This document shows positions 6,038 through 34,236 of a stretch of DNA of 64,000 nt, piece by piece. The DNA comes from Myxococcota bacterium (GTDB taxonomy: Bacteria; Myxococcota_A; UBA796; GCA-2862545). The DNA lies in NCBI GenBank assembly GCA_039208735.1, contig JBCCQY010000002.1, positions 96,001-160,000 of the forward strand. The letters run 5' to 3'. Within the stretch, counting starts at the first letter, position 1. Each line of letters starts with the position of its first letter. A program made the position numbers and the translations under genes. The notes beneath the pieces were generated by a model, which saw only the letters and a program-made list of their open reading frames with translations, did not search any database and had not been told where the DNA came from.

Positions 6038-6961
6038 CTACCCCTCCGAAACGGATTGCCCAACCCGGAGGAGGGCTTCACGGGTCGCATCGAGGCGTGG
6101 ATCGAGGGCTCCAAATTCGCGCAGGACCTCGGCGGTCGCCTCGACCTCAGCGACCAGCGCCGAACAGAGACGCGGCACCCCATGGTGATCGGCCGCGGTG
6201 TGCCACAACGACTCCAGCACCTTGACCCGTGAACCAAATCCCGAGGGTAGATCCGCTACCCGTGCCGCACGACCCATTCCGTGCAGCGAAAGAAACATTC
6301 CCGAGTATATAGGGCGCACCAAATGATTCACGATCCGACGCAGTCCCGTTTCTGGGTCGTCCAGATCGAGCCGAATCACCGGCAAGGGGTCTTGCAATCC
6401 CAGCCCCAACAACCCCCGGTGCGCGAGGGTCAACTCCACCGCCAACGCCGCGATTCGCGCTAACCATGCGCAGGAGGTCTGGGTGGCCAACGCCGCCGCA
6501 AACCCCGGCCACCAGACCCCCGCATGCCGCTCGAGGAACCGCCGTGACAATCCCCGGCACCGCTCGACGACGGCCGCGTGACCGTCCTCGATCGCGTCGG
6601 CCTCGGCCCGAGCGAGGTGGGCCAGATAGGCGAGTTGAAGCCCAATGTGATCGGGCTCAATCGAGGCAACGTCGGGGGCAAATCCGCCCTCCCGGTACGC
6701 GGCGTGCACCTCGGCGGCGACGGCCCCTCCAAGCAAGCCGTCCTCGGCCCGAAAAGTGCTTTCGTAGGGAAACACCTGACGGCCAAGGGCCTCTTGATGA
6801 GCCGCTGCGGCCAAGTCCGCTTCGAAGGGACGGGGCAGGACGTCTGCAATCGCAGGCAACTGCTGCAACGTCTCCACCGTGGCCTCGGACAGCCCTTCGG
6901 TCAGAACCAGGCCAAACAACGCGTAGGCCCGGTGGCGAGCCTCAGCGCTTTCACTTCGCAT
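6038..6961 (-). CDS. TorD/DmsD-family molybdoenzyme chaperone with C-terminal extension
   Basis: FPYES and EPDHIGLQLAYLA motifs; directly downstream of the Mo-enzyme. Confidence 0.8.
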   Translation of the reverse strand: MRSESAEARHRAYALFGLVLTEGLSEATVETLQQLPAIADVLPRPFEADLAAAAHQEALGRQVFPYESTFRAEDGLLGGAVAAEVHAAYREGGFAPDVASIEPDHIGLQLAYLAHLARAEADAIEDGHAAVVERCRGLSRRFLERHAGVWWPGFAAALATQTSCAWLARIAALAVELTLAHRGLLGLGLQDPLPVIRLDLDDPETGLRRIVNHLVRPIYSGMFLSLHGMGRAARVADLPSGFGSRVKVLESLWHTAADHHGVPRLCSALVAEVEATAEVLREFGALDPRLDATREALLRVGQSVSEG

Positions 6962-21191: not shown

Positions 21192-22847
21192 TCAGGCCAT
21201 CCGTCCAACCCCGGCAAATCGAATGCCGGCGAGCGCGGCCGTAGTCTCGTCACACGTAGACAGATCCGAAGGTTGAAACTTGCGGAATGCATCGTGACCG
21301 CAAGCTCGCGCCAACACCTTCATCAGTTCGGTGGCCCCGATGAAGAAATTGGCCAAGCGCGTGGCGCTAGCTTCCACCACAAGCCGCTTGCGAAGGTGTT
21401 CCTTGCGGGTCGCGATGCCGACGGGACAGTTGTTCGTGTTGCAAGCCCGCATGCCAAGGCAACCGATGGCCTGCAGGGCCGCGTTGGAGACCGCAATGGC
21501 GTCTGCTCCGAGCATCAGGGCCTTCACAAAGTCGGTAGGAACGCGCAGGCCGCCGGTCACGATCAAAGTCACCGGCTTGTCGCTGCTCCGCCCCCGGCCG
21601 ATTCGCTCCAGGTAGTGTCGGGCGCGCGCCAGCGCGGGAATGGTCGGCACGCTGATGTGGTCACGGAAGATGACCGGAGCCGCGCCCGTTCCCCCTCCAC
21701 GACCGTCCAAGATGATGTAGTCGGCGGTCGACTCGATCGCGAAGTCGATGTCGTCTTCGATGTGCTGACCGCTCATCTTGAAGCCGATGGGGATGCCGCC
21801 GGTCGCGTCTCGTACCTCATCCGCGACCCGTCGGAAGTCGGCCGGGGTCGAGAGATCGGTGAACGTGGCCGGTGAAATGGCGCTCTGTCCCACCTCGATG
21901 CCACGAACCTGTGCAATGCGCGCATCGACCTTGTGGCCCGGCAGGTGACCCCCCGTGCCCGTCTTGGCTCCCTGACCCGCCTTGAAGTGCATGGCTTGCG
22001 ACTTCTGGGCATTCGCGATGGACCAGCCAAACCGACCGCTGGCCAGTTCAAGCAGATAGCGCGAGTTCGCCTGCTGCTCCTCGGGTAGCATGCCCCCCTC
22101 TCCCGAGCAGATCCCCGTTCCCGCACGCTCCGCGCCCTTGGCGAGCGCGAGCTTGGCTTCCTCCGAGATCGCTCCAAAGCTCATGTCGCTGACGAACAAC
22201 GGAATCTCGAGTTCGAGCGGCTTGTTGCACGCCGGACCGATCACCGTTCGCGTGTCGACGGGATGGTCATCGAGCAACGGCTTGCGCCGCAGCTGGGCCG
22301 TCAGAATCTGAAGATCGTCCCAGGCGGGCAGTTTGTGGTGCGGAACCCCCATGGCCACGGTGACCCCGTGGTGCCCCACTCCGGCGATGCCTTCCCGGGC
22401 GAGGCGTTGGATGAACGCGTTGTGGGGCTCGTCAGGCGTGCCGTGGGGGTCTTGGTAGTCACCAAGGTACGCATCGCGGTTGAAGGGCTGTGGATGCTCG
22501 GTGCGCCACCGTGCGACTTCATCCGCATCGACGGTCACAGACCGTTGGCCATCGACATCCTCAATCCACGCCGAGAATTTCTCGAGAACCTCGTCGTTTT
22601 TGTACTCAGAGACACCGGTGTCGAAACGGTAGTCCCAGTTATGAAGGCCGCAAACGAGGTTGCCACCTTGGATATGACCATCGGCGAGTAGGGCACCCCG
22701 ATGGAGGCAACGCCCATAGAGCACCGAGACCTGATCAGCGCCATCGCGTTCATAGCGAACGATCACGAGGTCGACGTTGGCGACCCGAGCGGGGGTGGGA
22801 GTGAGGGCGGGCAGCTGGTTCCAACGGGCCACGACCACGCGATTCAT
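21192..22847 (-). CDS. Rieske 2Fe-2S + FMN-binding glutamate-synthase-domain protein
   Basis: CLH...CGLH Rieske; MSFGAIS, SGEGG, GQGAKTGTGGHLPG, DGRGGGTGAAP, CLGMRACNTNNC; GGAGGAG RBS. Confidence 0.9.
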   Translation of the reverse strand: MNRVVVARWNQLPALTPTPARVANVDLVIVRYERDGADQVSVLYGRCLHRGALLADGHIQGGNLVCGLHNWDYRFDTGVSEYKNDEVLEKFSAWIEDVDGQRSVTVDADEVARWRTEHPQPFNRDAYLGDYQDPHGTPDEPHNAFIQRLAREGIAGVGHHGVTVAMGVPHHKLPAWDDLQILTAQLRRKPLLDDHPVDTRTVIGPACNKPLELEIPLFVSDMSFGAISEEAKLALAKGAERAGTGICSGEGGMLPEEQQANSRYLLELASGRFGWSIANAQKSQAMHFKAGQGAKTGTGGHLPGHKVDARIAQVRGIEVGQSAISPATFTDLSTPADFRRVADEVRDATGGIPIGFKMSGQHIEDDIDFAIESTADYIILDGRGGGTGAAPVIFRDHISVPTIPALARARHYLERIGRGRSSDKPVTLIVTGGLRVPTDFVKALMLGADAIAVSNAALQAIGCLGMRACNTNNCPVGIATRKEHLRKRLVVEASATRLANFFIGATELMKVLARACGHDAFRKFQPSDLSTCDETTAALAGIRFAGVGRMA

Positions 22848-22937
22848 GGACTCCTCCGATTGTCTAGGAGACTCTACCGGGAACTTGCGCCCCGATGAGT
22901 CCAGTGTGCGAAGATCGGTCCCCCCCCCGGAGGAGAC

Positions 22938-23414
22938 ATGTTGCGCATCACTGCACTTTGGGCCCTGTTGACGGGCTGCGTCGGCACCGAGCCAGACACG
23001 ACCCCAACCGACGAGACGGCCACGCCAACCGAGACCCTCCCTACAGCCGAAACCGGCGAGAAAAAGAGCCCCGATACCCCGCCGGTCGTCACGATTACGA
23101 TGCCCAAAAAGGCACAATCCTCGTTGTTCTACGACGGCTACGACAACGACGCGATGCTCTGGTACAAAGACGTGACCTTCGAGGGCACCGCCACGGACGC
23201 CGAAGACGGCGAACTCTCCGGAGCATCGTTGGTTTGGACGACCAACAAGTCCGGCATTCAAGAAGCCGAACTGGGCACGGGCGGATCGATTACCGCGCGG
23301 CTCTACAGCGACGACTGCTTTGGAGCCACGCACAACATCACGCTGACGGGGACGGACAGCGACGGCAATGCCGTCTCTGCCGTCGTCGAGATCTTCATCT
23401 ACACCGTCTGCTGA
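22938..23414 (+). CDS. Lipoprotein with Ig/PKD-like domain
   Basis: Lipobox LLTGC, Thr/Pro linker, ATDAEDG..LVWT, HNITLTGTDSDG; GGAGGAG RBS. Confidence 0.75.
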   Translation: MLRITALWALLTGCVGTEPDTTPTDETATPTETLPTAETGEKKSPDTPPVVTITMPKKAQSSLFYDGYDNDAMLWYKDVTFEGTATDAEDGELSGASLVWTTNKSGIQEAELGTGGSITARLYSDDCFGATHNITLTGTDSDGNAVSAVVEIFIYTVC

Positions 23415-23417
23415 AGA

Positions 23418-24710
23418 CTACGGAAGGATCTCGTTGGGCGCGATCGTCGTGAGGGTCGTGCTCCCAAGCACGACCGACCGGTCGGTGGCGGCGGTGTTGT
23501 TGTCTCCACCCAGAACGACGGACTCAAGGCCCGAGGCGATGTTGAGGGCCCCGCCGACGACCGCCGAAGTCACGCCGGGCGCCTGATTGGCGTTGCCAGA
23601 CAGAATGACCGCGGCAAGGCCGTCATTGAGGTTGAACGCACCGCCCACGACGACCGCCGAGAATCCGTTGGTGCCGGTCTGGTTGGACTGACCACCCACC
23701 ACCGACGACAGAATGCCGGTGGTGGTGTTGCTCACGCCTCCAAGCACGGTAGAAGCGGGGCCCAACGCCTGGTTGCCCGAACCGAAGGCCACCGAGAAGT
23801 CGGTGATGACGTTGTCGAGGCCTGACACCATGGAAGCCACGCCCGTCCACTCGTGACCATCGCCGATGATCAGGTTGTGGCTCCCCGTCCGCACCGGGTT
23901 GGCCACGGGCGGGTTGTTGGCCGGGTCAGGCAAGGCATTGTAACCGATAACCAGATTACCAAGTCCCGTAAGCGCCCCATCGTCGTCGGTGAAGCCCGAG
24001 CCCGACTGGACGAACAGGTTGGCCCCGCTGAAGACGATCTCGTTGTTCATCGTGTCGACCGTCACGTAGCTGAGCAAGTCGCTCGCATCCCCCAACCCAT
24101 CGAGATCCGACTGGGTCAGGTAATCGGCCTCGATGACCGCGATACGATCTTCGACCGCCTGGAGGTCGGGCGGAGTGTTGACGTTGGCCAAGACGAAGGC
24201 CTCGGTGGCCAAGCCCACCAAGTCGCCCGCGGTGAGGTAATCGGCCTCGATGAACGACACGCGCGTCGACACCGCCGCCGTTGCGTCCGACAGCGCCGTC
24301 GCCGTGGCCTGCGTCAGGTAATCCACCTCGATGGCCCCTACGCGCGCCGACACCGCATCGGTCGCGTTCGTGAGCGCCACCGCATCCTTCTGGGTGAGGT
24401 AGTCCACCTCGATGTCGGCAACCCGTTGTTCGAGGTCCGTCGGAAGGGCATCGACCGCCATCTGTAGCGCATCATCAGCCGCTTCCAGCTCTGCATCCGC
24501 ATCTTCGAGTTCAAGATCCTTGGCTTCAAGCGCCGTAACCGCCGTTTCAAGTTGGGTGCGCAAGTCCTCAATCTCGTCCGTGGCGTCCATCAACGCGTTC
24601 TCGAGATCATCGAGACGCTGCTGGTCGGCGTCCGAGGTGCCACCGAACGAACAGGCGACCGAGGTGAGCGGGATCAGCGAAAACAGCATCAAACGAAGCA
24701 TAATGACCAT
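23418..24710 (-). CDS. Lipoprotein with coiled-coil stalk and beta-roll head repeats (fibre-like)
   Basis: SVAC lipobox, heptad region, 4x IE[VA]DYLT, C-terminal SxVxGGxxN 14-aa repeats. Confidence 0.75.
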   Translation of the reverse strand: MVIMLRLMLFSLIPLTSVACSFGGTSDADQQRLDDLENALMDATDEIEDLRTQLETAVTALEAKDLELEDADAELEAADDALQMAVDALPTDLEQRVADIEVDYLTQKDAVALTNATDAVSARVGAIEVDYLTQATATALSDATAAVSTRVSFIEADYLTAGDLVGLATEAFVLANVNTPPDLQAVEDRIAVIEADYLTQSDLDGLGDASDLLSYVTVDTMNNEIVFSGANLFVQSGSGFTDDDGALTGLGNLVIGYNALPDPANNPPVANPVRTGSHNLIIGDGHEWTGVASMVSGLDNVITDFSVAFGSGNQALGPASTVLGGVSNTTTGILSSVVGGQSNQTGTNGFSAVVVGGAFNLNDGLAAVILSGNANQAPGVTSAVVGGALNIASGLESVVLGGDNNTAATDRSVVLGSTTLTTIAPNEILP

Positions 24711-24775: not shown

Positions 24776-25906
24776 CTAATCTTCCCCGCTTTCTTCCTCG
24801 GGTTCTGGCAGCAGCGACTTACGAATGCGGTGCCACACATACCCGGCATCCGAACCGGGATCGTCCCATCGACCTGAGAACCTTCCGCAAAAGCTCGATT
24901 TCAAGATCTCCGCGAGGAGCGCATCGTCGGCCTTCTCCATGAGCGGATGCTTGAGATAAATGCACACTTCATCGGTGGCCCGAACCGACAGGCCCGCTAC
25001 GAGCTCTTTGGCATCGCGAACCTCGTTAGCGAGCTTCACGATGGTCTTGAGCCGTGCCTTCGAGACCTCGGGATGCCGCCGATGCAGCAACTTGACCTCT
25101 TCCTCCGCGGGCAGGTAGGTCACCTGAAGAGGCGCAAAGCGGTCGAGTTGGGCCGCATCGATCGAAAAGGTTCCGGTGAACGCCGACCCCCGATTGACTG
25201 CGGCCACAAACTGTACGTTGTCAGGAATGTCGAGGAACGCGTTGGTGACAGGATCGAAGAGCTTCCGAGTGCTGTCCAACGCGGGCATCAGCGTATTGCG
25301 CGCGGCTTCTGGACAACGATTCAGCTCGTCGAGGAACACGAGGTAGCGCCCATCGTCCTCGCGCGCCTCGAACAGCGCGGCCCGCAGGTCCGTCGAGACG
25401 AAATCGGTGATGGGCACCCCACCTTCACCGGCTCGGACTTGAATCGTGGCCATGAAGTCGGTCGCTTCAATGACCGAACTGCAGTTGAAGAATACGAACC
25501 GCATGCCCAACGTCTCGGAGATTGCGCGGGCGAGAACAGTTTTCCCAGAGCCCTGTGGACCATCGAGCAGAATGTTGAGGCCACTTTCGAGAAGCACCTG
25601 TAGCTTTCGCGAAACCACAGGATCCAGATAGATCCCATCGATCTGAAGCGCATGGGCCCGCACGAACTCCACCTCGATCCAGCCCCGGTCGCTCCGTTCG
25701 GGTTTGTGGACCTCGACAATGCGCACCTCGGTCCGCATACCAGGTCGAATGCGCGGATCGTCGGACAATACGACTTTGGGAGCGCGCTTACCGTCGAGGT
25801 GAGTCGCCCGATAACGGTATTTGGAGCTATCAACCGGGTTGACGAAAAACGTGGTGGACATCGTCTTACCGACGTGGATCTCGTGGACCTTCCACTTGCC
25901 GCTCAT
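24776..25906 (-). CDS. MoxR-family AAA+ ATPase with extra N-terminal beta-rich domain
   Basis: Walker A GPQGSGKT, Walker B VFLDELNR, AAVN sensor, AQLDRF Arg finger, LSVR sensor 2. Confidence 0.9.
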   Translation of the reverse strand: MSGKWKVHEIHVGKTMSTTFFVNPVDSSKYRYRATHLDGKRAPKVVLSDDPRIRPGMRTEVRIVEVHKPERSDRGWIEVEFVRAHALQIDGIYLDPVVSRKLQVLLESGLNILLDGPQGSGKTVLARAISETLGMRFVFFNCSSVIEATDFMATIQVRAGEGGVPITDFVSTDLRAALFEAREDDGRYLVFLDELNRCPEAARNTLMPALDSTRKLFDPVTNAFLDIPDNVQFVAAVNRGSAFTGTFSIDAAQLDRFAPLQVTYLPAEEEVKLLHRRHPEVSKARLKTIVKLANEVRDAKELVAGLSVRATDEVCIYLKHPLMEKADDALLAEILKSSFCGRFSGRWDDPGSDAGYVWHRIRKSLLPEPEEESGED

Positions 25907-25914
25907 GAACTCTC

Positions 25915-28900
25915 CTACCGGCGCGCACGCATCGTGGTTGCCACGAGGCCCTGGACGATGCGGCCGAAGCGGCGCACCGCATCGCCGGTTTCATCGTTCA
26001 GCACCTCGACGTAATGGTCGAAACAGGGCTCGCGAATCGGCGCGACCGCGACCTGGGCGCAGGCCATGCCTTCGCGAGAGAGTCTGCGGACCAGCCCGAT
26101 GAGTGCGTTCGAGGTGCACTCCGTGGGAAGCCCATCGCTGATCATGACGAGGAGCTTGACGTCGCGGGGGCTTCGTCGCGCCAGCGTTGCGACATGGTGC
26201 AACGCCGCCGCATCGTTGTTGCCGCCCTCCGTACGCAAGGCATGGGCCGCACTGCGCATGGCGTTGCCCGCATCGAACAGCTTCGAGTCGGTAAAGCCAA
26301 AGGTCCGAAGATCGACGCTCGCCAGTCCTCGGCAGGCTTCAGCCATCAAGGTTGCAAATCGGCGAGCCCGCTCGAGCCGGGCTCCGCCCATCGAGCCCGA
26401 ACAATCCACGCAGACGCCGACGAACAGGTCGTTGGCCGGCATGCGAACCCGACTCACCAAGATGCGCGGATCCCGTCGGAGCGCAGCGTGCACCAAACGC
26501 CCTCGATCGATGCGATGCCCTTGGGTGCGGGGCTTGACCGGTCGGGTGGCCAAGCCCAAATCGGCGAGAGCGGCCCGAAGTTGGCTTGCCGGTCGCTGAA
26601 CATCACGGGCGAGCCGGGCGTGCGCCACCGGATCATGGGACAGGACCTCGATGGTTTCAATGCGGTCGAATTCGGTTTCATCCCCTACATTGATGGTGTC
26701 GGGGCCGGCGGCCCCTTCGCCAAACCCCTTGGGCTTCTCCCGAATGCGCTGGAGTTCATCGGCTTTGCCTTGAACCTCCTCGTCGGTGACCCCACGGCCA
26801 CCCGGAATCGCCTCACCATCGCCCCCCGCCGAGGTTTCGTGCAGGTCGACGAGGTCCATGAGGTTGACGTCATCCCCAAACAACTCGTGCAGCGCGAGGG
26901 TGACCTTCCACAGTCCCTCGTTGTCGAGCTTCCGGAACCCCTTCCCAAACAGGGCCAGACCCTTCTCAACGAGCGGATCCCCGTGCCGATTGCCAAGCCC
27001 CATGCGCAGGGCCCGCACAAAGCGGGCGAAGCTCGATCCCTCGGCTTCGAGCTGCCGGAACAGCCGGCCCATTTCGATGGTGACGCAGCCCACCGTCCGC
27101 GCCACGCCCATCGAGGTGGCGATGAGGCGGTCGACCGACATGCCAAGGCGCTCGATGAGCGTGAGCACGTGGATGTCGGTGCGGGTGTGAAGGAACGCCC
27201 ACGCGGCCAACCGCTTGAGCACAAGGTCGTAGCCAGGCTTCATCGATCGCAAATTGCGTTCAAGATGCTCGTCGCACACGAGATTGTGAAGACGCTGAAG
27301 CTTCTTCTCCCCCGCCCGTTTCCAAACCTCGAGGCCTTCTCGGCTTGCGTTGTAGAGGTGGTGCCCAAGTTCGTGGATGAGCAGTCCCTTCAGAATCGCC
27401 GCGCCATTCCGCTCCCGGCGCAACAGCGGCAGCGGATTGACGTAGACGCGGTCCTGCTCGAGACGGGTATAGCCGAGCGACTCCCCTCCAATGAGCTGAA
27501 CGCCGAAGTCCCGATCGAGCAGGTCGCGGGCCTGGTCGCGCCCCCACAACACAACGCGAGCAAGCCGCCCCACCACCCGTTGCTTGATGTGGCGATTGTC
27601 CAGGTGATTAAGGGCTTCACGCTGTACCGCCTCTTGGTCGCAGTCGTTGAGGATGGCCAGCGCGGCCCTCGTCCGCTCAAACAAGGGCACATGGGAGGCG
27701 ACAACCGCCGTGAGCAGGGCGCTTGGCGGCACAAGGTCCGTCCCGGCCAGCACACCGGCTCGCGCGACTTCGTCGGCCCCCCGTGGGGCGAGTTCGACGA
27801 AGGGCTGGGTGTCGTTGCGCACCTGCTCCATGCGCCGCGCGGCCAGGATGGGTGCGCCCAGCGAGTCTCCCCGCGTGGCCAACGCTTCAGCCGCGGTCAG
27901 CCGAATCTTGGCCATCCGGTTCCGACCATGACGTAAGAACCGTCGTAGCGGCTCAATCTCCCGCCCATCGGGCTCCTCGATCAGCAAGAGCACGGCCCAG
28001 CGGTAAGCAGGGAAATGCGGGCTATCGACCAGAGCGATGGCAAGTTCCATGCTTCGGTCTGAGGGGGCATGGGCAAGCCAACGCGTGAAACGGGCGTGAT
28101 CGAGCCACGATCGAGCCTCATCGGTATGGGGGGCCACCATTGCGGCGACCGCCGGTTCGACGCAATCTACGTCGTCGAGGAACGCTCCTTCCGCCAACGC
28201 CAATGCCACGTGGAAGCGCACCTGTGGGGGGCGCGACGGATCGGCGAGGGTCTCGGCCAGAAGGCGAAGGGCATCCGAGTCCGACACAAGGGCAACCGCC
28301 TGGCAGAGCACGGCGGGATTGCGGCCCGGAGTCTCCACGAGAGCGTGAACGAGCGCGCGTCCGCCTTCTGGAAGCTCGAGAAGGCGCAACGAAGCCAGTT
28401 CCGCCCAGCCTCGCTCACCGCGCTGAACAATGTCGATGAGCACCGCCACGTCCGTGAGAGATTCCACGCCCTGCGGCACCTCCACGGTCTCGCCCGGCGG
28501 CTCCTCCGTCCCCGACGGTGGTTCGACGCCCAGCCACGCAGCGAGTTCGGCGACGGTTCGCGGAGGAAGCTCCCCGAGTCGGGCTTCCACAGGCTCGCGA
28601 TACGCCGAGAGGTCGATGCCCAAATGCACCATCGCGTTCAAGATCAGGGCCGCCTGTCGGGTGACGTCGGCGAAATCGGGGCGACTGGCAACATAGGCCC
28701 GGGGTGAGCCCGACGTGGCGTTCGCTCCATCGAAGGAACGGACGACGATCGTCAAGAATCGATCGTGCGCCACCTCGACCAGCGTTGTCGGCACACGCCA
28801 CCGCCAACGACCGCACAAGTGCCGAACGGCTTGCCACAGTCGATGCCGAAGCCGAGTGGACGGGAGCTCGAGCGAACGGGCCAGGACGGCGGCGAGGTCC

Positions 28901-30990
28901 TGGGCCTGGTCGGTCGCCCACGACACAAAGACGGAAAACGGGCGATCCCAGCGCCACAACCATGCCGCCATCGCCGTTCCCACCTGATCGTCCTGACCAA
29001 AGTTCTTGACGGCGCGGGTCTCGAGTTCGTGCCAAAACGCGTCGGTGGATTCGCTGTAGTCCTCCAGAAGCCGGCCAACCGATTCGAGACGATCCCCAGA
29101 CAACAACAGGGCCAAGCATGCCTCGATGCTGGGCTGTGGCTTGCGGTTGTCCAGCGCTTCAACGACCCCGCGGCTGCGCGCGGACAACGCCGGAGCCAAC
29201 GCCGTGGCAAGCTGCTTGGGAGTCGCGGTCTTGATTCGGTTGAGTTCGGCATTGGTAAGACCACGGCCTGGCGAGGCCTCGGCCAACCGGGCCATGGCGA
29301 CCTCGACCGGCGCCAAAACCTCGCGTGCCCATGCCTGAATGCCCGAATGCCCATGGTGTTGCAGGGCTTTGGCCACCTCCTGCTGCAACGCCCAGGGCAG
29401 CGCATCTTCCTTGCGATCCAAGTCGACGAGCCGCTGCAGCGCTGCACCGGACAGATCATCCACCACGGAAGACCCCAGAGCCACCAAGGCCTGCGTCACC
29501 AAGTGATGGACGAACCCACCCGACAACGCCTGCTCCAGCACCGCGGAAAGCGCGGCCACCGTGTTGAACGGAGGGTGGCGAGCCAGCTTCGTGACGTGCC
29601 GCTCGCGGATGGCTCCGTTCCGATCCAGACTGGCGAGAGCGGCAAGAACCTCCCGCAACAATGCATCCTGTTCCGCTTCCCCCCAGTCCGAGGGGCGAGC
29701 TTCGAGCAGCAACAAGGCCTCTTTGGGAAGCCGTACGGCAGCGTGCGCGATGAGGGTCGCGGTGGCGCGTCCATGCTGGTTCAGCACGTCCAACAACAGC
29801 GTTCGGCGAGCGGACTTGTCACGGCGCGTCTGCACCGGTACCGCGAGCAGCCGGCCCCCCGCGTCTGGGTCCTCCACCATCGCGTTGACCAGCGCATCCC
29901 GGCGAAGGTCCGGATGCTGCAGCAGCGTGTCGAACGCGTTGGGCCCCGCCAGCCGGACCAACCCGGTCAGCCCGTCGATCGACACCGCGTCCCAGGGCAC
30001 GTGCTCAAACAGCCCGTCTTGCACCTCGGAGGGGAGACTCCCTTGGACCGCGCGGGCGTAGTGTGGCAACGCGGGCCACAGCCGATCGGGGTGCATCAGA
30101 CGGGCCAGGCCAGGGAACCCCGCCAGAGCCAATGCCAACCCGAGGGGCCACCAATCCAACTTCGAAAGCACCACCACCACACTGATCGCCAGGCGACGTT
30201 CGTGGTCGGTCAGCGCACCGCCCGATGCGACGTCGTGGAGCCACTGTTCCACGATGCTTGTCGCATGTGGATCTTCGGCCATCGCTCCACTGATGATGGT
30301 TCGAACCAACTCATCCAAACTGTCGGACTGGGACCGCCACGCGAGGATTTGCTCGCCCAACGGCTCGTCCTTGGTGGGCGCCGGATTCCGGGTCGCGGAA
30401 AAGACGGTGACGATGGCCTCGAGCTGATGACGCCAATCCAGACTGGCCAAGCAACGGAAGACCAGCCCCGTGGCCAGACCGCCCCGTTTGGTCAGGCGCA
30501 TCAGATCACCGACGCTGCCCGGCTCGAGCCCATGTACGAGCAGGCGGGCCTCGAGCATCGGCCCCACCTCGGGGTCGCCAAGCAACGGCAGCAACGACCA
30601 CTGTGGCATCGCGGCATGGCTCGGCATCGCCTCGAGGGTCTGTTGACGGACATCGGACCGCGGATGGTACAGCCCGTGGACCCACAGCAATCGGTCCATC
30701 CGACCCACCACGGCACACGACCGCATCGCGGCGGCCCGAACCGCGTCCTCCTCATCGTCGAGGGCTCGAACCAGAGCCGTGCGGGCCCCGAGTCCGGTGG
30801 CCCCCTCAAAGGCCGCGAGGGCCGCCACCCGAACGGCCGGCGCATCATGGTCCAACAATGCCTCGACCCGTGCGAAATACGGCCAACGGTCTGAGGCCGA
30901 AAGCTCCGCGAGGGCGTCGAGCCACTCAACCAGCTCATCATCCGACCGTTCCGGGTCGGTGAGGGCGTTCCAACAATCCAAGTCACGCAT
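25915..30990 (-). CDS. Large HEAT/ARM-repeat protein with HExxH zincin-like domain and C-terminal vWA domain
   Basis: LLDHDAPAVRVAALAAF / ALDDEEDAVRAAA HEAT repeats; HELGH (27361-27375) followed by NLVCDEHLE; MIDAS DCSGS, GGNND, MISDG; probable ATG at 30990. Confidence 0.85.
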   Translation of the reverse strand: MRDLDCWNALTDPERSDDELVEWLDALAELSASDRWPYFARVEALLDHDAPAVRVAALAAFEGATGLGARTALVRALDDEEDAVRAAAMRSCAVVGRMDRLLWVHGLYHPRSDVRQQTLEAMPSHAAMPQWSLLPLLGDPEVGPMLEARLLVHGLEPGSVGDLMRLTKRGGLATGLVFRCLASLDWRHQLEAIVTVFSATRNPAPTKDEPLGEQILAWRSQSDSLDELVRTIISGAMAEDPHATSIVEQWLHDVASGGALTDHERRLAISVVVVLSKLDWWPLGLALALAGFPGLARLMHPDRLWPALPHYARAVQGSLPSEVQDGLFEHVPWDAVSIDGLTGLVRLAGPNAFDTLLQHPDLRRDALVNAMVEDPDAGGRLLAVPVQTRRDKSARRTLLLDVLNQHGRATATLIAHAAVRLPKEALLLLEARPSDWGEAEQDALLREVLAALASLDRNGAIRERHVTKLARHPPFNTVAALSAVLEQALSGGFVHHLVTQALVALGSSVVDDLSGAALQRLVDLDRKEDALPWALQQEVAKALQHHGHSGIQAWAREVLAPVEVAMARLAEASPGRGLTNAELNRIKTATPKQLATALAPALSARSRGVVEALDNRKPQPSIEACLALLLSGDRLESVGRLLEDYSESTDAFWHELETRAVKNFGQDDQVGTAMAAWLWRWDRPFSVFVSWATDQAQDLAAVLARSLELPSTRLRHRLWQAVRHLCGRWRWRVPTTLVEVAHDRFLTIVVRSFDGANATSGSPRAYVASRPDFADVTRQAALILNAMVHLGIDLSAYREPVEARLGELPPRTVAELAAWLGVEPPSGTEEPPGETVEVPQGVESLTDVAVLIDIVQRGERGWAELASLRLLELPEGGRALVHALVETPGRNPAVLCQAVALVSDSDALRLLAETLADPSRPPQVRFHVALALAEGAFLDDVDCVEPAVAAMVAPHTDEARSWLDHARFTRWLAHAPSDRSMELAIALVDSPHFPAYRWAVLLLIEEPDGREIEPLRRFLRHGRNRMAKIRLTAAEALATRGDSLGAPILAARRMEQVRNDTQPFVELAPRGADEVARAGVLAGTDLVPPSALLTAVVASHVPLFERTRAALAILNDCDQEAVQREALNHLDNRHIKQRVVGRLARVVLWGRDQARDLLDRDFGVQLIGGESLGYTRLEQDRVYVNPLPLLRRERNGAAILKGLLIHELGHHLYNASREGLEVWKRAGEKKLQRLHNLVCDEHLERNLRSMKPGYDLVLKRLAAWAFLHTRTDIHVLTLIERLGMSVDRLIATSMGVARTVGCVTIEMGRLFRQLEAEGSSFARFVRALRMGLGNRHGDPLVEKGLALFGKGFRKLDNEGLWKVTLALHELFGDDVNLMDLVDLHETSAGGDGEAIPGGRGVTDEEVQGKADELQRIREKPKGFGEGAAGPDTINVGDETEFDRIETIEVLSHDPVAHARLARDVQRPASQLRAALADLGLATRPVKPRTQGHRIDRGRLVHAALRRDPRILVSRVRMPANDLFVGVCVDCSGSMGGARLERARRFATLMAEACRGLASVDLRTFGFTDSKLFDAGNAMRSAAHALRTEGGNNDAAALHHVATLARRSPRDVKLLVMISDGLPTECTSNALIGLVRRLSREGMACAQVAVAPIREPCFDHYVEVLNDETGDAVRRFGRIVQGLVATTMRARR

Positions 30991-30999
30991 GACGTGCCC

Positions 31000-31558
31000 T
31001 ATGGGTACACCACGGCGGTCCGATGACGGGGGCATGACCTCGCACCCGGGGAGCCGGACCGGGCCCACCACGCCGTTCGTGAACGGGCGCCACGTAGCCG
31101 TGGCCCCCGATCGCCCGGCGACCCACGAGGGGCCGCAGCGTTGTGTTTCCGATCCTGGGTTGGGAGTGCATCGAAGGAAGCGACAAGCCGAGGACCAAAG
31201 AAGGGCGGATGCATCCGAAGATGTCATCGAGGTGGTTGAAATGCCCTTCGGTCGTGCGCGCAGCCCGCTCCCACCTGAGAAGACTGGATGCTCGCGCACC
31301 TCACCCTGCACCTTCCTGACAACCGGGGAAGGTTCAGAGGCCCATGCGTCGCAAACTCATGGGCTAACTCCACTTGCGACCGAAGCCGCAGCGTTCAGCT
31401 CACGTCGTACGAAGGAAACGTCCGAAACCGGACCGCCGTAGTGTCAAAGAACCGGGTCGAACCAGGACAGAACCTGAACGACAGCGAGAGGCGCAAAACG
31501 CGCACGACTCATGACGGCTCCAAGAAGGAAAGTGAAGAACGCTCTTTCGAGCTTCTAC
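31000..31558 (-). ncRNA. Putative structured ncRNA / long 5' leader
   Basis: At least 8 hairpins including two cUUCGg loops and one GAAA loop, all reading as stable tetraloops on the minus strand; exact 11-nt repeat AACGCTGCGGC; directly downstream of a promoter. Confidence 0.55.
31444..31512 (-). CDS. Possible 22-aa leader peptide MSRARFAPLAVVQVLSWFDPVL
   Basis: GGAG RBS 5 nt before the ATG, within the structured leader. Confidence 0.3.
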   Translation of the reverse strand: MSRARFAPLAVVQVLSWFDPVL

Positions 31559-31564
31559 ATTCCT

Positions 31565-31591
31565 ATTATGGGGTCTCTGGATGGGGGTCAA
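31565..31591 (-). promoter_or_regulatory. sigma32(RpoH)-like or sigma70-like promoter
   Basis: TTGAC-N13-CCCCATAAT on the minus strand in an AT-rich patch. Confidence 0.6.
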
Positions 31592-31842
31592 TAGAAAGAG
31601 ATCTGCATCACCAGGGCCTTGTCGCGACGTTGCATATCGAACAGCCCGCCCTATTCAGGCTCGACGACCCCTACCTTCCCTAGGATCGCGGTGTTCAGGA
31701 CCCCGAAGGAGGGGCGGTGCACGAAACGGCCGCCCGATGCGCAGGCCCCGGGTGGATTTTCGTAACGGATCCAACGACAAGGCCGCCTGCGTCAGGGTTT
31801 CCGACACAGACGGCCAAGGGCCTCAACACGGGCGAAGGTTCT

Positions 31843-34236
31843 TTATGGCAGGAACTGCACCGGTGGCTGGGCCGCACACCCCACTTGACCATCGTTGTGG
31901 GGAGCGGGAGCGGGTTCGATGCCGAGCGTCGTGCTGCTGCCCAGGACCGAGGCCGCACCGTAGCCCTCGACGCGCCACCCGCCCTCGGCCAACTGTGCGC
32001 CAAGGTGGGTTCCCGCCATCACCGCGGGCTTGTCGAGCTTGACCAGAGCCCCGTCTCCCGTCGCATCCTGCACGCGGAACCCCAGCGGGATGCTCGCAAG
32101 ACCGGACCCGTTCGAATTGAGGTAGACCGCGTCGAGGAAAGCGAGGTCGAAGCGATCGAGGGTGATGCCGAGGGGAATGCTCGCAAGGCCGCTTCCATCC
32201 AACGATGCGAGCATCACGGGAACTTCGTCCTGACTGACGCCCAAGGTGACGGTTTCGACCGACGTATCGAGGTCGTCGAGGGTCTTAGGCGTCAACACCA
32301 AGCCCAATGGAATGGACGCCAGCCCGGAGCCGCTGTCGACGAGGCTGTAGCCCTCACCTACGCGTCCCAGCACGGGGTCTTGATGGTCCGACCACCCCCA
32401 CGCGAGCATCGCCTGGTTCGTGGCCGGCTCCGCCCGCAAGGCCCCCACGAGGTCCTGGAAGGCATCGGTGGCCGTGACGGCAGCCCTTGGGCGGTGCGTC
32501 GTTTGGGACGCCTCGTCGCTGTGCAACTCGACGAGGGACTGCACGGCAATGGCCCAGGCAACAGCTGGGAACTCGCCCGTGCTCAAATCCCTCATGACAT
32601 GGGTGCCCCGCGTGGTGCAGACCCCATTCGAATCGGTGGTGCAGAACACGGTCTCGTCGCCATTACCCCAAATGTTGGCGTACACCTTCACGTTGTCGGC
32701 ACGCGCACCATCATCGGTGAAGACGGTGATTCGAACCTTGGGCCGAACCGCATCGCCATGGTCATCAACGGCGAGGTAGGGCAACATCGCGACATAGAAG
32801 GAACGAGGGTCAGGTGCGACGGAGGGCACCTCTTCGTCCACGTCGAGGTAGCCCGACCCGCGGCCGGACCAAACGTCCCTCCCCGTCGCGGCCTCCTTGA
32901 GCAGCAGCTCGACCTCGCGACGGTCGTACCCTGCTTCGACCAACGGTACGGCTGCGCCACTCACCATGGCAGCGGCCTGGCTGGTCCCAGCCATCAGCCA
33001 GTACCCCATTTCCGTAGGCTGCCCCGTGGCGAACGTCTCGGCCAGGATTCCATCCGGGATGCCGTCGCCATCGTGGTCGTCGTGCAGGTCTCCCCCCGGC
33101 GCGAGCAGGTCGATGGCGGCGCTCGCGTTGGAGTAGCTGGGGACGCCTTCACTGCTGAAATCGCCGTAGGACCGTTGGTTGGCGGCCCCGACGGCGATGA
33201 CTTCCGGACTCGCCGCAGGCCAGGTGATGCGGTCCGCCCCATCGTTGCCCGCCGCCGCCACCATCACGATGCCCGCATCCGCCGCGGCCTGAAGGGCCTC
33301 TTGGAGGGCCAATGACGGCACGTAGTCTTGGTGGAACGACAGACTCATGTTGATGATGTCGGCCCCGTGCTGCACGGCGTGCCAAATCCCTTCGATGAGC
33401 GCCGCTTCATGGCCCTGGTTGTGCTCGTCGAGCACCTTGATCGGCATCAGCGAGGCGCCTTGGGCGACCCCGTGCAGGGCGCCCCCATCGGAAGCAATCA
33501 CCGAGGCGATGTGCGTGCCATGCTGGTGGTCGTCGTTTGCGTGCGGGTCGTCGTTGATGAAGTCGTGGGGCGAAACGATGGCACTCGAGGCAAGCGACGG
33601 AGCCGCAACGTAGGACGTCCCGCTGCGGGTGATGGTCTCATAGGCGACGCCTGTGTCGAGCACTGCGACGACCACGCTCGACGAATCGACCGAGCACGCC
33701 GGGTCCAGCTCGTCGAGGTACCACTGGTGCGACTCGAATGCCGGATCGTCACCGCAATCAGACCCGGCCCCCACGATTCGGCCATTGGCACCGCTTGCCT
33801 GGACCCGAGGGTCTTGCGACGCGGCCGCCAACGCCTCTGTGGTCCCGCCCAACAGCCCATAGCCCGAGGGCCCCGCGGCCCGAAGCACGTCCAGGTCGTA
33901 ATCAGCGGCAAGATCGGACAAGTCCTCGGGGTCAGTAAGGCGTACCAGCCGCTGACCCGGCACATAGGCGTCGGCAAAGGTGACCTGCGAAGCATCGTCA
34001 GACAGCGCCGAAGTGGTCACACTCGAGGCGGGCGCCACTGGTTTGAAGGGGCGAGACCCCACTTCAACGGTGGGCCCTGTCACAAGGGTGGGAGTTGCAG
34101 GCGGGTTCGGCGGGTCCGATGACCAAAGCAGGACAATCATAGCGAGCAACGCGCTCGCAGCAGCAACCGGACGGGCTCTCACAAGGGCCTCCGCGACGGT
34201 GAGGTTCGCAGGCCCTCTCGGTTCAATGAGCGTCAC
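31843..34236 (-). CDS. Subtilisin-like S8 serine peptidase with C-terminal extension
   Basis: VLDTG, HGTHIA, AAAGN, GTSQAAA; N-terminal hydrophobic anchor; 3x GSGLASIPLG. Confidence 0.9.
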   Translation of the reverse strand: MTLIEPRGPANLTVAEALVRARPVAAASALLAMIVLLWSSDPPNPPATPTLVTGPTVEVGSRPFKPVAPASSVTTSALSDDASQVTFADAYVPGQRLVRLTDPEDLSDLAADYDLDVLRAAGPSGYGLLGGTTEALAAASQDPRVQASGANGRIVGAGSDCGDDPAFESHQWYLDELDPACSVDSSSVVVAVLDTGVAYETITRSGTSYVAAPSLASSAIVSPHDFINDDPHANDDHQHGTHIASVIASDGGALHGVAQGASLMPIKVLDEHNQGHEAALIEGIWHAVQHGADIINMSLSFHQDYVPSLALQEALQAAADAGIVMVAAAGNDGADRITWPAASPEVIAVGAANQRSYGDFSSEGVPSYSNASAAIDLLAPGGDLHDDHDGDGIPDGILAETFATGQPTEMGYWLMAGTSQAAAMVSGAAVPLVEAGYDRREVELLLKEAATGRDVWSGRGSGYLDVDEEVPSVAPDPRSFYVAMLPYLAVDDHGDAVRPKVRITVFTDDGARADNVKVYANIWGNGDETVFCTTDSNGVCTTRGTHVMRDLSTGEFPAVAWAIAVQSLVELHSDEASQTTHRPRAAVTATDAFQDLVGALRAEPATNQAMLAWGWSDHQDPVLGRVGEGYSLVDSGSGLASIPLGLVLTPKTLDDLDTSVETVTLGVSQDEVPVMLASLDGSGLASIPLGITLDRFDLAFLDAVYLNSNGSGLASIPLGFRVQDATGDGALVKLDKPAVMAGTHLGAQLAEGGWRVEGYGAASVLGSSTTLGIEPAPAPHNDGQVGCAAQPPVQFLP

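Follow-up and report, generated by a model that had tools for sequence, protein, structure and literature searches.

MoxR-type ATPases, which work with partner proteins carrying a von Willebrand factor A (vWA) domain, are widespread and poorly understood. In the pairs NorQ-NorD, CbbQ-CbbO, RavA-ViaA and CobS-CobT, the gene for an AAA_5 ATPase lies beside a gene whose product ends in a vWA domain with a metal ion-dependent adhesion site (MIDAS). Midasin (Rea1/MDN1), which remodels pre-ribosomes in eukaryotes and thus has an RNA-protein particle as its substrate, contains six AAA modules fused in one chain, and in its tail a long helical region, an acidic linker and the MIDAS domain follow each other. 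Ro60 (Rsr) joins a helical-repeat scaffold and a MIDAS vWA domain in one protein and has a dedicated structured RNA, the Y RNA, usually encoded adjacent to its gene. Orphan large structured RNAs linked to partner genes are also known, such as OLE with OapA/B/C and the HEARO/omega RNA with IscB. Here we compare with these systems a locus in a 64,000-nucleotide (nt) stretch of DNA from a Myxococcota bacterium (assembly GCA_039208735.1, contig JBCCQY010000002.1, positions 96,001 to 160,000 of the forward strand; hereafter the window, whose positions serve as coordinates), in which an RNA with a conserved fold is encoded upstream of a gene for a giant protein with HEAT-like repeats, an HELGH motif and a MIDAS vWA domain, followed by a gene for an AAA_5 ATPase (Table 1). 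The RNA represents a real and uncatalogued family, occurs as a single copy per genome, and is in practice confined to genomes that encode both the HEAT/zincin/vWA protein and the AAA_5 ATPase.

Compared with the described MoxR/vWA pairs, which show the same gene arrangement, the present pair has in addition a predicted S1/TRAM-like N-domain in the ATPase, and about 1100 residues of HEAT repeats and an HExxH domain in the large protein. Its AAA core has midasin as the nearest solved chain, its vWA domain matches the MDN1/Rea1 MIDAS, and the large protein resembles the midasin tail in the order of its parts, whereas each ATPase chain holds one AAA module (376 amino acids, aa) instead of six fused ones, ATPase and MIDAS are on separate proteins, and a predicted zincin is present. 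The locus shares with Ro60 the helical-repeat scaffold and MIDAS vWA domain in one protein and the dedicated structured RNA, usually beside the gene, but the present protein is three times larger, has the added zincin and no detected TROVE domain, the AAA_5 ATPase is an obligatory third part, and the RNA folds into a double pseudoknot and fits no Y RNA model. The OLE and HEARO/omega RNAs are alike in having a complex conserved fold and an RNA gene linked to specific protein genes; their fold and partners are unrelated to those described here.

Published accounts describe parts of this layout. The available part of PMC13036017 deals with the mechanism of MoxR-vWA pairs, on which the steps proposed below are based. 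In jumbo phages, a MoxR ATPase is encoded with a vWA partner that carries a fused metallopeptidase domain at its N terminus (Iyer et al. 2021, PMC7824862), and the pair was predicted to act as chaperone and co-chaperone with proteolytic processing; the available part of that paper, which also cites a review of the Ro60 layout, describes no RNA for the pair, to which the present proteins add HEAT repeats and an S1/TRAM-like domain. According to the part of Kaur et al. (2020, PMC7159879) available to us, vWA proteins of MoxR systems may carry HEAT repeats or, rarely, metallopeptidase domains, and MoxR-vWA-beta-propeller ternary conflict systems combine a bpMoxR-type ATPase with a VMAP/beta-propeller third part. 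In the present case, the bpMoxR-type model PF20030 scored 16.4 bits against the ATPase, below its cut-off of 27, and no third conserved protein neighbour was found at the loci. In the full-text literature, with subscription journals outside the coverage, we found no RNA tied to a MoxR/vWA pair and no account of the present protein family; as far as our searches show, this is the first such pair linked to a dedicated RNA. An initial annotation of the window had recognized no named system with this layout, and we likewise found no named system or RNA family that fits.

The initial annotation had also read the DNA upstream of the large gene as a structured RNA, and comparison of homologous upstream regions, which could have refuted this by showing no long conserved structured stretch, did not do so but revealed a structured element with strong covariation. 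Approximately 570 nt upstream of the large gene (30991–31560) are without a conserved reading frame, and of these only about 145 nt (31299–31157) are conserved beyond close relatives. Folding of the 576-nt upstream region gave z = −2.63 against shuffled sequences, with 1 of 100 shuffles folding as well, which is modest taken alone; the strong support comes from comparison between loci. A 14-base stretch of the upstream region recurred exactly before distant homologues, and was found at 53 loci when up to two mismatches were allowed. In a MAFFT alignment of 45 loci, conservation was limited to the core, a block after the second pseudoknot (PK2) and the start-codon region, and the flanks were conserved within lineages only. 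The core contains five helices, two of which are pseudoknots, with compensatory changes across 54 sequences. In the first pseudoknot (PK1), the loop sequence GGUGG is paired with the downstream CCACC, with covarying examples including GGAUGG/CCAUC, GGUAGG/CUACC and GGCGGG/CCGCC. In PK2, 6 nt between helices P1 and P2 (GCACGG-like) are paired with a block 60–120 nt downstream (CCGUGC-like) that directly precedes a conserved CGUCGAU. The remaining helix, P3, lies between P1 and the 3′ strand of PK2, encloses the PK1 acceptor, and consists of P3a (4 pairs) and P3b (6–7 pairs) with a UUU bulge.

The pairings were evaluated in the 54 sequences against shuffled alignments and against partners slid out of register. 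For P1, P2 and PK1 (20 pairs), 96.7% of the cells were paired, compared with 85.6% in shuffles and 33–57% with slid partners, and 16 of the 20 pairs were altered on both sides; none of 500 shuffles reached the observed values. When PK2 was added in a plain MAFFT alignment, 93.4% of the cells of the resulting 26 pairs were paired, compared with 81.7% in shuffles and 28–52% with slid partners, 21 of the 26 pairs, including all six of PK2, showed double changes, and again none of 500 shuffles matched the observation. At least five of six P3b pairs, of many pair types, were formed in 38 of 55 evaluated sequences, and most misses, that of the window included, carried a hairpin inserted in P3. The seed sequences had been chosen by loop similarity, which inflates loop conservation and leaves stem covariation unaffected. 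A possible further closing helix, in which the 5′ flank of P1 would pair with the CGUCGAU block, was dropped, as it fitted some sequences by eye and not others. The core matched no Rfam 15 family: the upstream region gave no match at E ≤ 1, the whole window gave none at the gathering score, and the sole row returned for seven related loci was unrelated, sub-threshold and located elsewhere.

A word-indexed search for the protein family returned 94 proteins, most of 1600–1780 aa, with named hosts among the Myxococcota (Kofleriaceae, Sandaracinus), the Planctomycetota (Stieleria) and bins labelled ‘Delta-’ or ‘Alphaproteobacteria’; cultured carriers among the matches were Plesiocystis pacifica SIR-1, Sandaracinus amylolyticus and Stieleria species. 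A pattern scan with one genome per species yielded 210 encoding stretches, and the best 80 of the 210 were analysed as loci. The ATPase gene was present at 67 of the 80 loci, directly after the large gene in most, and its product was 56–92% identical to the window protein, compared with only about 30–45% for the large protein. A covariance model (R1), built on the nested part of the RNA, matched 63 of 82 sources once each, namely the window (31196–31308, 66.3 bits), the locus of genome G003 and 61 of the 80 loci, which belong to Myxococcota, Planctomycetota and further groups. The top matches reached 97.5–98.5 bits, and members absent from the seed were also found. Among the 19 loci without an RNA match, 14 were without upstream sequence. 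Whole-genome searches for loci L013, L014, L032, L090 and L027, the last with its upstream region cut by the contig end, revealed exactly one RNA copy elsewhere in four of the five genomes; L041 lies on the contig of genome G165 and was covered by the phylum sample described next.

Co-occurrence was then followed in three genome samples, 343 genomes in total. Among 41 relatives, the RNA was found in G000, G001 and G003, and strong protein matches were found in the same three genomes, with weak matches at the level of the vWA domain only in three others. Among 151 genomes of the window's phylum, the RNA was found in G000 and G165, and the protein in these two and, in a divergent form, in G075. 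Among 151 genomes around G177, both the RNA and the full-length protein were found in G177 and G283, and a 195-aa fragment of the protein was found in G271. With filters off, a degenerate RNA copy (27 bits) was detected upstream of the divergent protein of G075. This genome carries two divergent ATPase copies (44–45% identity) and two vWA matches (C108 and C120), as if the system had been duplicated and had diverged there, with the degenerate RNA lying before one of the copies. The RNA-associated MoxR-vWA pair proposed initially is partly supported: the structured RNA at 61 of 80 loci, the genome-wide co-occurrence, and the retention of the RNA when it is unlinked from the genes speak more for an RNA partner than for a simple leader. 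An RNA match in G060 (37.8 bits) was rejected as a false positive, as the loop consensus is missing and the match sits in apparent coding sequence. When metagenome contigs were scanned with the 14-base loop pattern, 2 of 80 fetched loci matched the model and the rest were chance matches; one of the two (L154) is a true RNA copy with too little flank, and the other (33 bits) was discarded as weak, lying inside a long open frame with no protein relative nearby.

The position of the RNA relative to the genes varied among the 61 loci. At 51 loci it was on the same strand, about 80–900 nt before the estimated start of the large gene, and at six others it was on the same strand 1.4–5.8 kb upstream, with unrelated intervening genes identified in five of the six (MopE-like, chondroitinase-B-like, class II aminoacyl-tRNA-synthetase-like, and a large Ig-repeat gene). 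The synthetase-like gene, at a Nannocystaceae-type locus (L063:4558–5868, plus strand), encodes tRNA-synt_2 and anticodon-binding OB domains. At three loci (L016, L056 and L058) the RNA was on the opposite strand just upstream, and at L016 the inverted RNA lies between two plus-strand genes, with no gene downstream of it. At the remaining locus, from a Thermoanaerobaculia bin (L088:8792–12186, minus strand), the RNA, the ATPase gene and an FGE-sulfatase-domain gene follow in this order, and the gene for a zincin/vWA protein of about 757 aa without the long HEAT region lies elsewhere, convergent to the RNA and ATPase gene. On a 7.0-Mb contig of G165, a complete RNA core is separated from the gene by 26 kb, and a convergent open reading frame (ORF) follows the core within about 230 nt. 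In G177, a 7.81-Mb chromosome record, the three genes are dispersed to 0.32 Mb (large gene), 6.66 Mb (ATPase gene) and 6.93 Mb (RNA), which puts the RNA 271 kb away from the ATPase gene and, assuming a circular chromosome, about 1.2 Mb away from the large gene; approximately 250 nt after this RNA, a GC hairpin with a U-tract is followed by an unrelated signal-peptide gene.

Terminator-like hairpins were found 170–400 nt past the core at 9 of the 61 loci in a strict scan, compared with 3 of 61 in an antisense control, and several further loci, mainly planctomycete and of lower GC content, show such hairpins by eye. In the window, no terminator is visible between the RNA and the genes, which may well share a transcript. 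At four loci of Gemmatales or Pirellulales (L034, L023, L018 and L084), a UGGUAUAAUGG-like block lies right before the terminator hairpin, 170–260 nt after the core, and may belong to the RNA or represent an extended −10 element. At L034, a long perfect palindrome (GGGTCAGGATTCCCATCCTGACA and its complement, at approximately 6860–6960) lies between the RNA terminator and the large-gene start and resembles a repetitive extragenic element.

That all three genes persist in single copy even where they are dispersed is what one would expect of parts cooperating in trans, and on balance we lean towards the RNA being a stand-alone, trans-acting partner (cofactor, scaffold or regulator) of the ATPase/vWA pair. 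The alternative that fits the common arrangement is an operon leader acting in cis, either a riboswitch-like aptamer or a protein-bound autoregulatory site, that controls read-through or translation of the large gene. The prevailing same-strand position (51/61 loci) is where such a leader would sit, the compact pseudoknotted fold with its invariant loop bases is aptamer-like, hairpin and U-tract terminators between core and gene at several loci are also compatible with attenuation, and in the window no terminator separates the RNA from the gene. We nevertheless regard a cis leader as possible but rather unlikely. The RNA of G177 is distant from both protein genes, has its own terminator and is followed by an unrelated gene, that of G165 faces a convergent ORF, and the RNA is inverted at three loci, at one of which nothing lies downstream; as the RNA can be unlinked, inverted or facing convergent genes, it cannot be accounted for as a leader or riboswitch alone. 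The terminators lie past the core and do not overlap it, and there is one RNA copy per genome, tied to a single protein pair, whereas metabolite riboswitches normally control several kinds of genes. An autoregulatory leader, for its part, overlaps with a trans-acting partner, because protein binding is needed in both cases. Besides the leader-like position and the terminators, further points weigh against a trans-acting partner: RNA binding, the RNA ends and the function are all inferred; of the four genomes in which the RNA lies elsewhere, two are fragmented metagenome bins, where the contig assignment could be wrong; G175 carries the proteins, and no RNA was found in a search of its whole genome; the sampled genomes are related and limited candidates were scored per genome, which makes the co-occurrence counts descriptive and not independent trials; and the S1/TRAM fold match of the ATPase N-domain is weak (E-values 0.012–0.1, template modelling score ~0.5), with no Pfam match and no solved chain at E ≤ 10 to support it by sequence.

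The core could alternatively be a self-cleaving or otherwise catalytic RNA with a role in transcript processing upstream of the operon. The order of its strands (P1-5′, PK2-5′, P2 hairpin, P1-3′, P3 hairpin, PK2-3′), which is backed by covariation, is that of the nested double pseudoknot of hepatitis delta virus (HDV)-like ribozymes, and the bases of the hairpin loop and stem show no or almost no variation. HDV-like ribozymes typically have a G-U wobble as the first P1 pair, whereas this pair is C-G in 40 of 54 sequences; the P2 hairpin has 8 pairs and its loop pairs into the P3 loop, unlike P3, L3 and P1.1 of HDV; and no Rfam ribozyme model matched at E ≤ 1. As catalysis would also leave the strict tie to two proteins and the retention of the unlinked RNA unexplained, we consider a ribozyme very unlikely. 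That the upstream DNA is ordinary GC-rich spacer with chance hairpins, and the real feature merely a MoxR-vWA chaperone pair, would agree with the modest z-score of the whole region and with the conservation in close relatives only outside the core, but is hardly credible in view of the compensatory changes at 21 of 26 pairs in sequences from several phyla, which no shuffle reached, and of high-scoring model matches that occur once per genome and only alongside the proteins.

The ATPase was assigned to the MoxR type with a vWA partner in the initial annotation, and this assignment was upheld by an AAA_5 match of 47.9 bits (cut-off 22), by intact and conserved Walker A (GPQGSGKT) and Walker B (FLDELNR) motifs, and by the neighbouring MIDAS vWA gene. 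Among solved chains, the AAA core matched midasin with E = 4.8e-20, followed by chains at about 1e-5 and by NorQ at 1.7e-4, and many multi-AAA giants were among the distant relatives of the ATPase. The N-terminal region of about 95 residues, folded with 22 homologues, was modelled as a separate five-stranded barrel with a predicted local distance difference test (pLDDT) value of 90. The top Foldseek rows for this domain, most of them with probabilities of 0.9–1.0, were all S1, OB or TRAM domains from proteins that bind RNA, including eIF2-alpha, PNPase, NusA, MiaB with RNA, and RumA, and the atlas model of the ATPase had TRAM and S1 neighbours as well. The N-domain is thus predicted to have an RNA-binding fold, and on these models it would be a candidate RNA binder at least as good as the HEAT scaffold favoured initially. 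At L088, the RNA is kept next to the ATPase gene although the vWA protein of this locus has a mere 757 aa or so.

Residues 1 to about 1100 of the large protein consist of HEAT-like repeats with weak Pfam matches, and the language-model atlas neighbours of this region were generic HEAT clusters only, with scores below 0.9. The parallel with Ro60/TROVE drawn in the initial annotation was not sustained at the domain level, as residues 1–1090 gave no TROVE match even at E ≤ 10 and HEAT families alone appeared. The HELGH motif (residues 1206–1210) and the MIDAS motif DCSGS (DxSxS, residues 1529–1533) were invariant in 22 of 22 sequences. Gluzincin-type metallopeptidases have, after HExxH, an acidic third ligand on the next helix. 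In the present protein, an invariant DEHLE (residues 1240–1244) lies with HELGH on consecutive helices of the AlphaFold model, in the putative zincin domain; this region gave no match to a Pfam peptidase family and no domain-specific fold match. An acidic linker separates the predicted zincin from the vWA domain. The VWA model matched the C-terminal 601 aa with 25.0 bits (cut-off 23.8), a profile of the last 600 residues retrieved CobT only among solved chains, and the model of the C-terminal region (pLDDT 81.5) had as best fold matches the NorD vWA domain in NorQD and the MDN1/Rea1 MIDAS. No NCBIfam model reached its cut-off for either protein, and no PADLOC family was found, with just P-loop and HEAT repeat noise.

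Based on the biology of MoxR-vWA pairs and midasin, we infer a mechanism in which the ATPase would form a MoxR/midasin-type ring whose S1/TRAM-like N-domains would hold the RNA, and the vWA domain of the large protein would dock on this ring through its MIDAS, like NorD on NorQ and the Rea1 MIDAS on its own ring. ATP-driven motion would then remodel this particle of RNA and protein, or else a client bound to the HEAT solenoid, and this movement might also gate the zincin peptidase. A housekeeping or quality-control role is weakly favoured over anti-phage defence, because the ATPase is highly conserved, the system is single copy and no mobile or defence context was seen. The defence role entertained initially found no support: neither protein belongs to a PADLOC family, no close relative was found on viral contigs, where three loci matched over the vWA domain only, at 24–25% identity, and the conservation of the ATPase is unusual for arms-race genes. 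No RNA data set was listed as covering window positions 30700–31700, and two metatranscriptome runs from a study that contains this DNA gave no contig on the stretch; both results are uninformative either way.

A bolder reading, which we consider quite unlikely, is a split prokaryotic midasin crossed with Ro60, that is, an ATP-driven RNA-protein machine in which the knotted RNA would be an integral subunit in the S1/TRAM-like ring and the state of the RNA (intact, damaged or client-bound) would gate the zincin on the HEAT arm. If true, MoxR/vWA systems would have their first RNA-dependent example, possibly an evolutionary relative of the pre-ribosome remodeller of eukaryotes.

Three features of the locus are notable: the RNA family is new, has an intricate fold and is backed by covariation; two proteins strictly co-occur with it in at least two phyla; and genomes that keep all three genes despite their being scattered amount to natural ‘experiments’. 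Taken together, they make a case, concrete and open to testing, for a new class of bacterial RNA-protein machine. They also have a bearing on how midasin-like AAA/MIDAS machines for ribonucleoprotein particles arose.

Table 1. Features of the locus, with helices of the RNA core (P, helix; PK, pseudoknot) given as 5′ strand / 3′ strand; G001 is a sister genome.
Feature	Position	Strand	Remarks
AAA_5 ATPase gene	24776..25906	minus	376 aa
Large HEAT/HELGH/MIDAS-vWA gene	25915..30990	minus	1691 aa from ATG at 30990
Spacer from RNA core to start codon	30991..31156	minus	well conserved with G001 only; no intrinsic terminator recognisable
Conserved RNA core, ~145 nt	31157..31299	minus	defined by comparison; coordinates counted from the sequence
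P1	31299-31293 / 31260-31254	minus	7-pair helix
PK2	31291-31287 / 31172-31168	minus	pseudoknot; from side-by-side alignment
P2	31285-31277 / 31270-31262	minus	5+3 pairs, nested in P1; hairpin loop AGGUGG
PK1	31275-31271 / 31235-31231	minus	pseudoknot; P2 loop with downstream CCACC
P3a+b	31253-31243 / 31206-31193	minus	UUU bulge at 31199-31197
5′ part of non-coding region	31300..31560	minus	conserved in G001 only, not across 45 diverse loci
Upstream ORF (uORF), 22 codons	31444..31512	minus	within 5′ part of non-coding region
Promoter-like hexamers TTGACC (31590-31585) and CATAAT (31570-31565)	31565..31590	minus	15-nt spacer; putative, read from sequence
Terminator-like hairpin, 15 pairs	31781..31815	minus	ends upstream S8 peptidase gene; upstream limit of unit
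S8 peptidase gene	31843..34236	minus	upstream of unit

The minus-strand unit of non-coding DNA, giant gene and ATPase gene outlined in the initial annotation was found with all its parts, 8 nt separating the large-gene stop from the ATPase ATG, and required some corrections. The mechanically called ORF of the large gene (25915..31311, 1798 aa) begins with GTG. We place the true start at the ATG at 30990, because an orthologue from the same genus begins there with an identical MRDLDCW, because indels in the sister genome upstream of this ATG are not multiples of three, and because M1 is near-invariant among 22 aligned homologues. The promoter claimed upstream of the unit stands in part: its hexamers are readable and the −35 hexamer with the preceding bases is kept in sister genome G001, but it was not listed by a consensus promoter scan, because its spacer is 15 nt, and it stays putative.

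The uORF encodes MSRARFAPLAVVQVLSWFDPVL, with GGAG 6 nt ahead of its ATG, and its start, stop, length and frame are the same in the sister genome despite differences at 12 of the 22 residues. It was dropped as a member of a family-wide core, as in-frame conservation was seen in the sister genome only and at none of the more distant loci. Downstream of the ATPase gene, minus-strand genes encode a 430-aa protein without clear family (23418–24710) and a 713-aa protein with Rieske and glutamate-synthase (Rieske/GltS) domains (21192–23333); both recur in the sister genome only and are therefore not part of the unit. The S8 peptidase gene recurs at none of the 80 loci, and no other neighbour of the pair in the window is conserved. 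The closest relatives of the locus (L011, L014, L076 and L086) are in records titled ‘uncultured Enterobacteriaceae/Enterobacterales’, yet these are GC-rich and have the gene content of Myxococcota bins, and are probably mislabelled bins.

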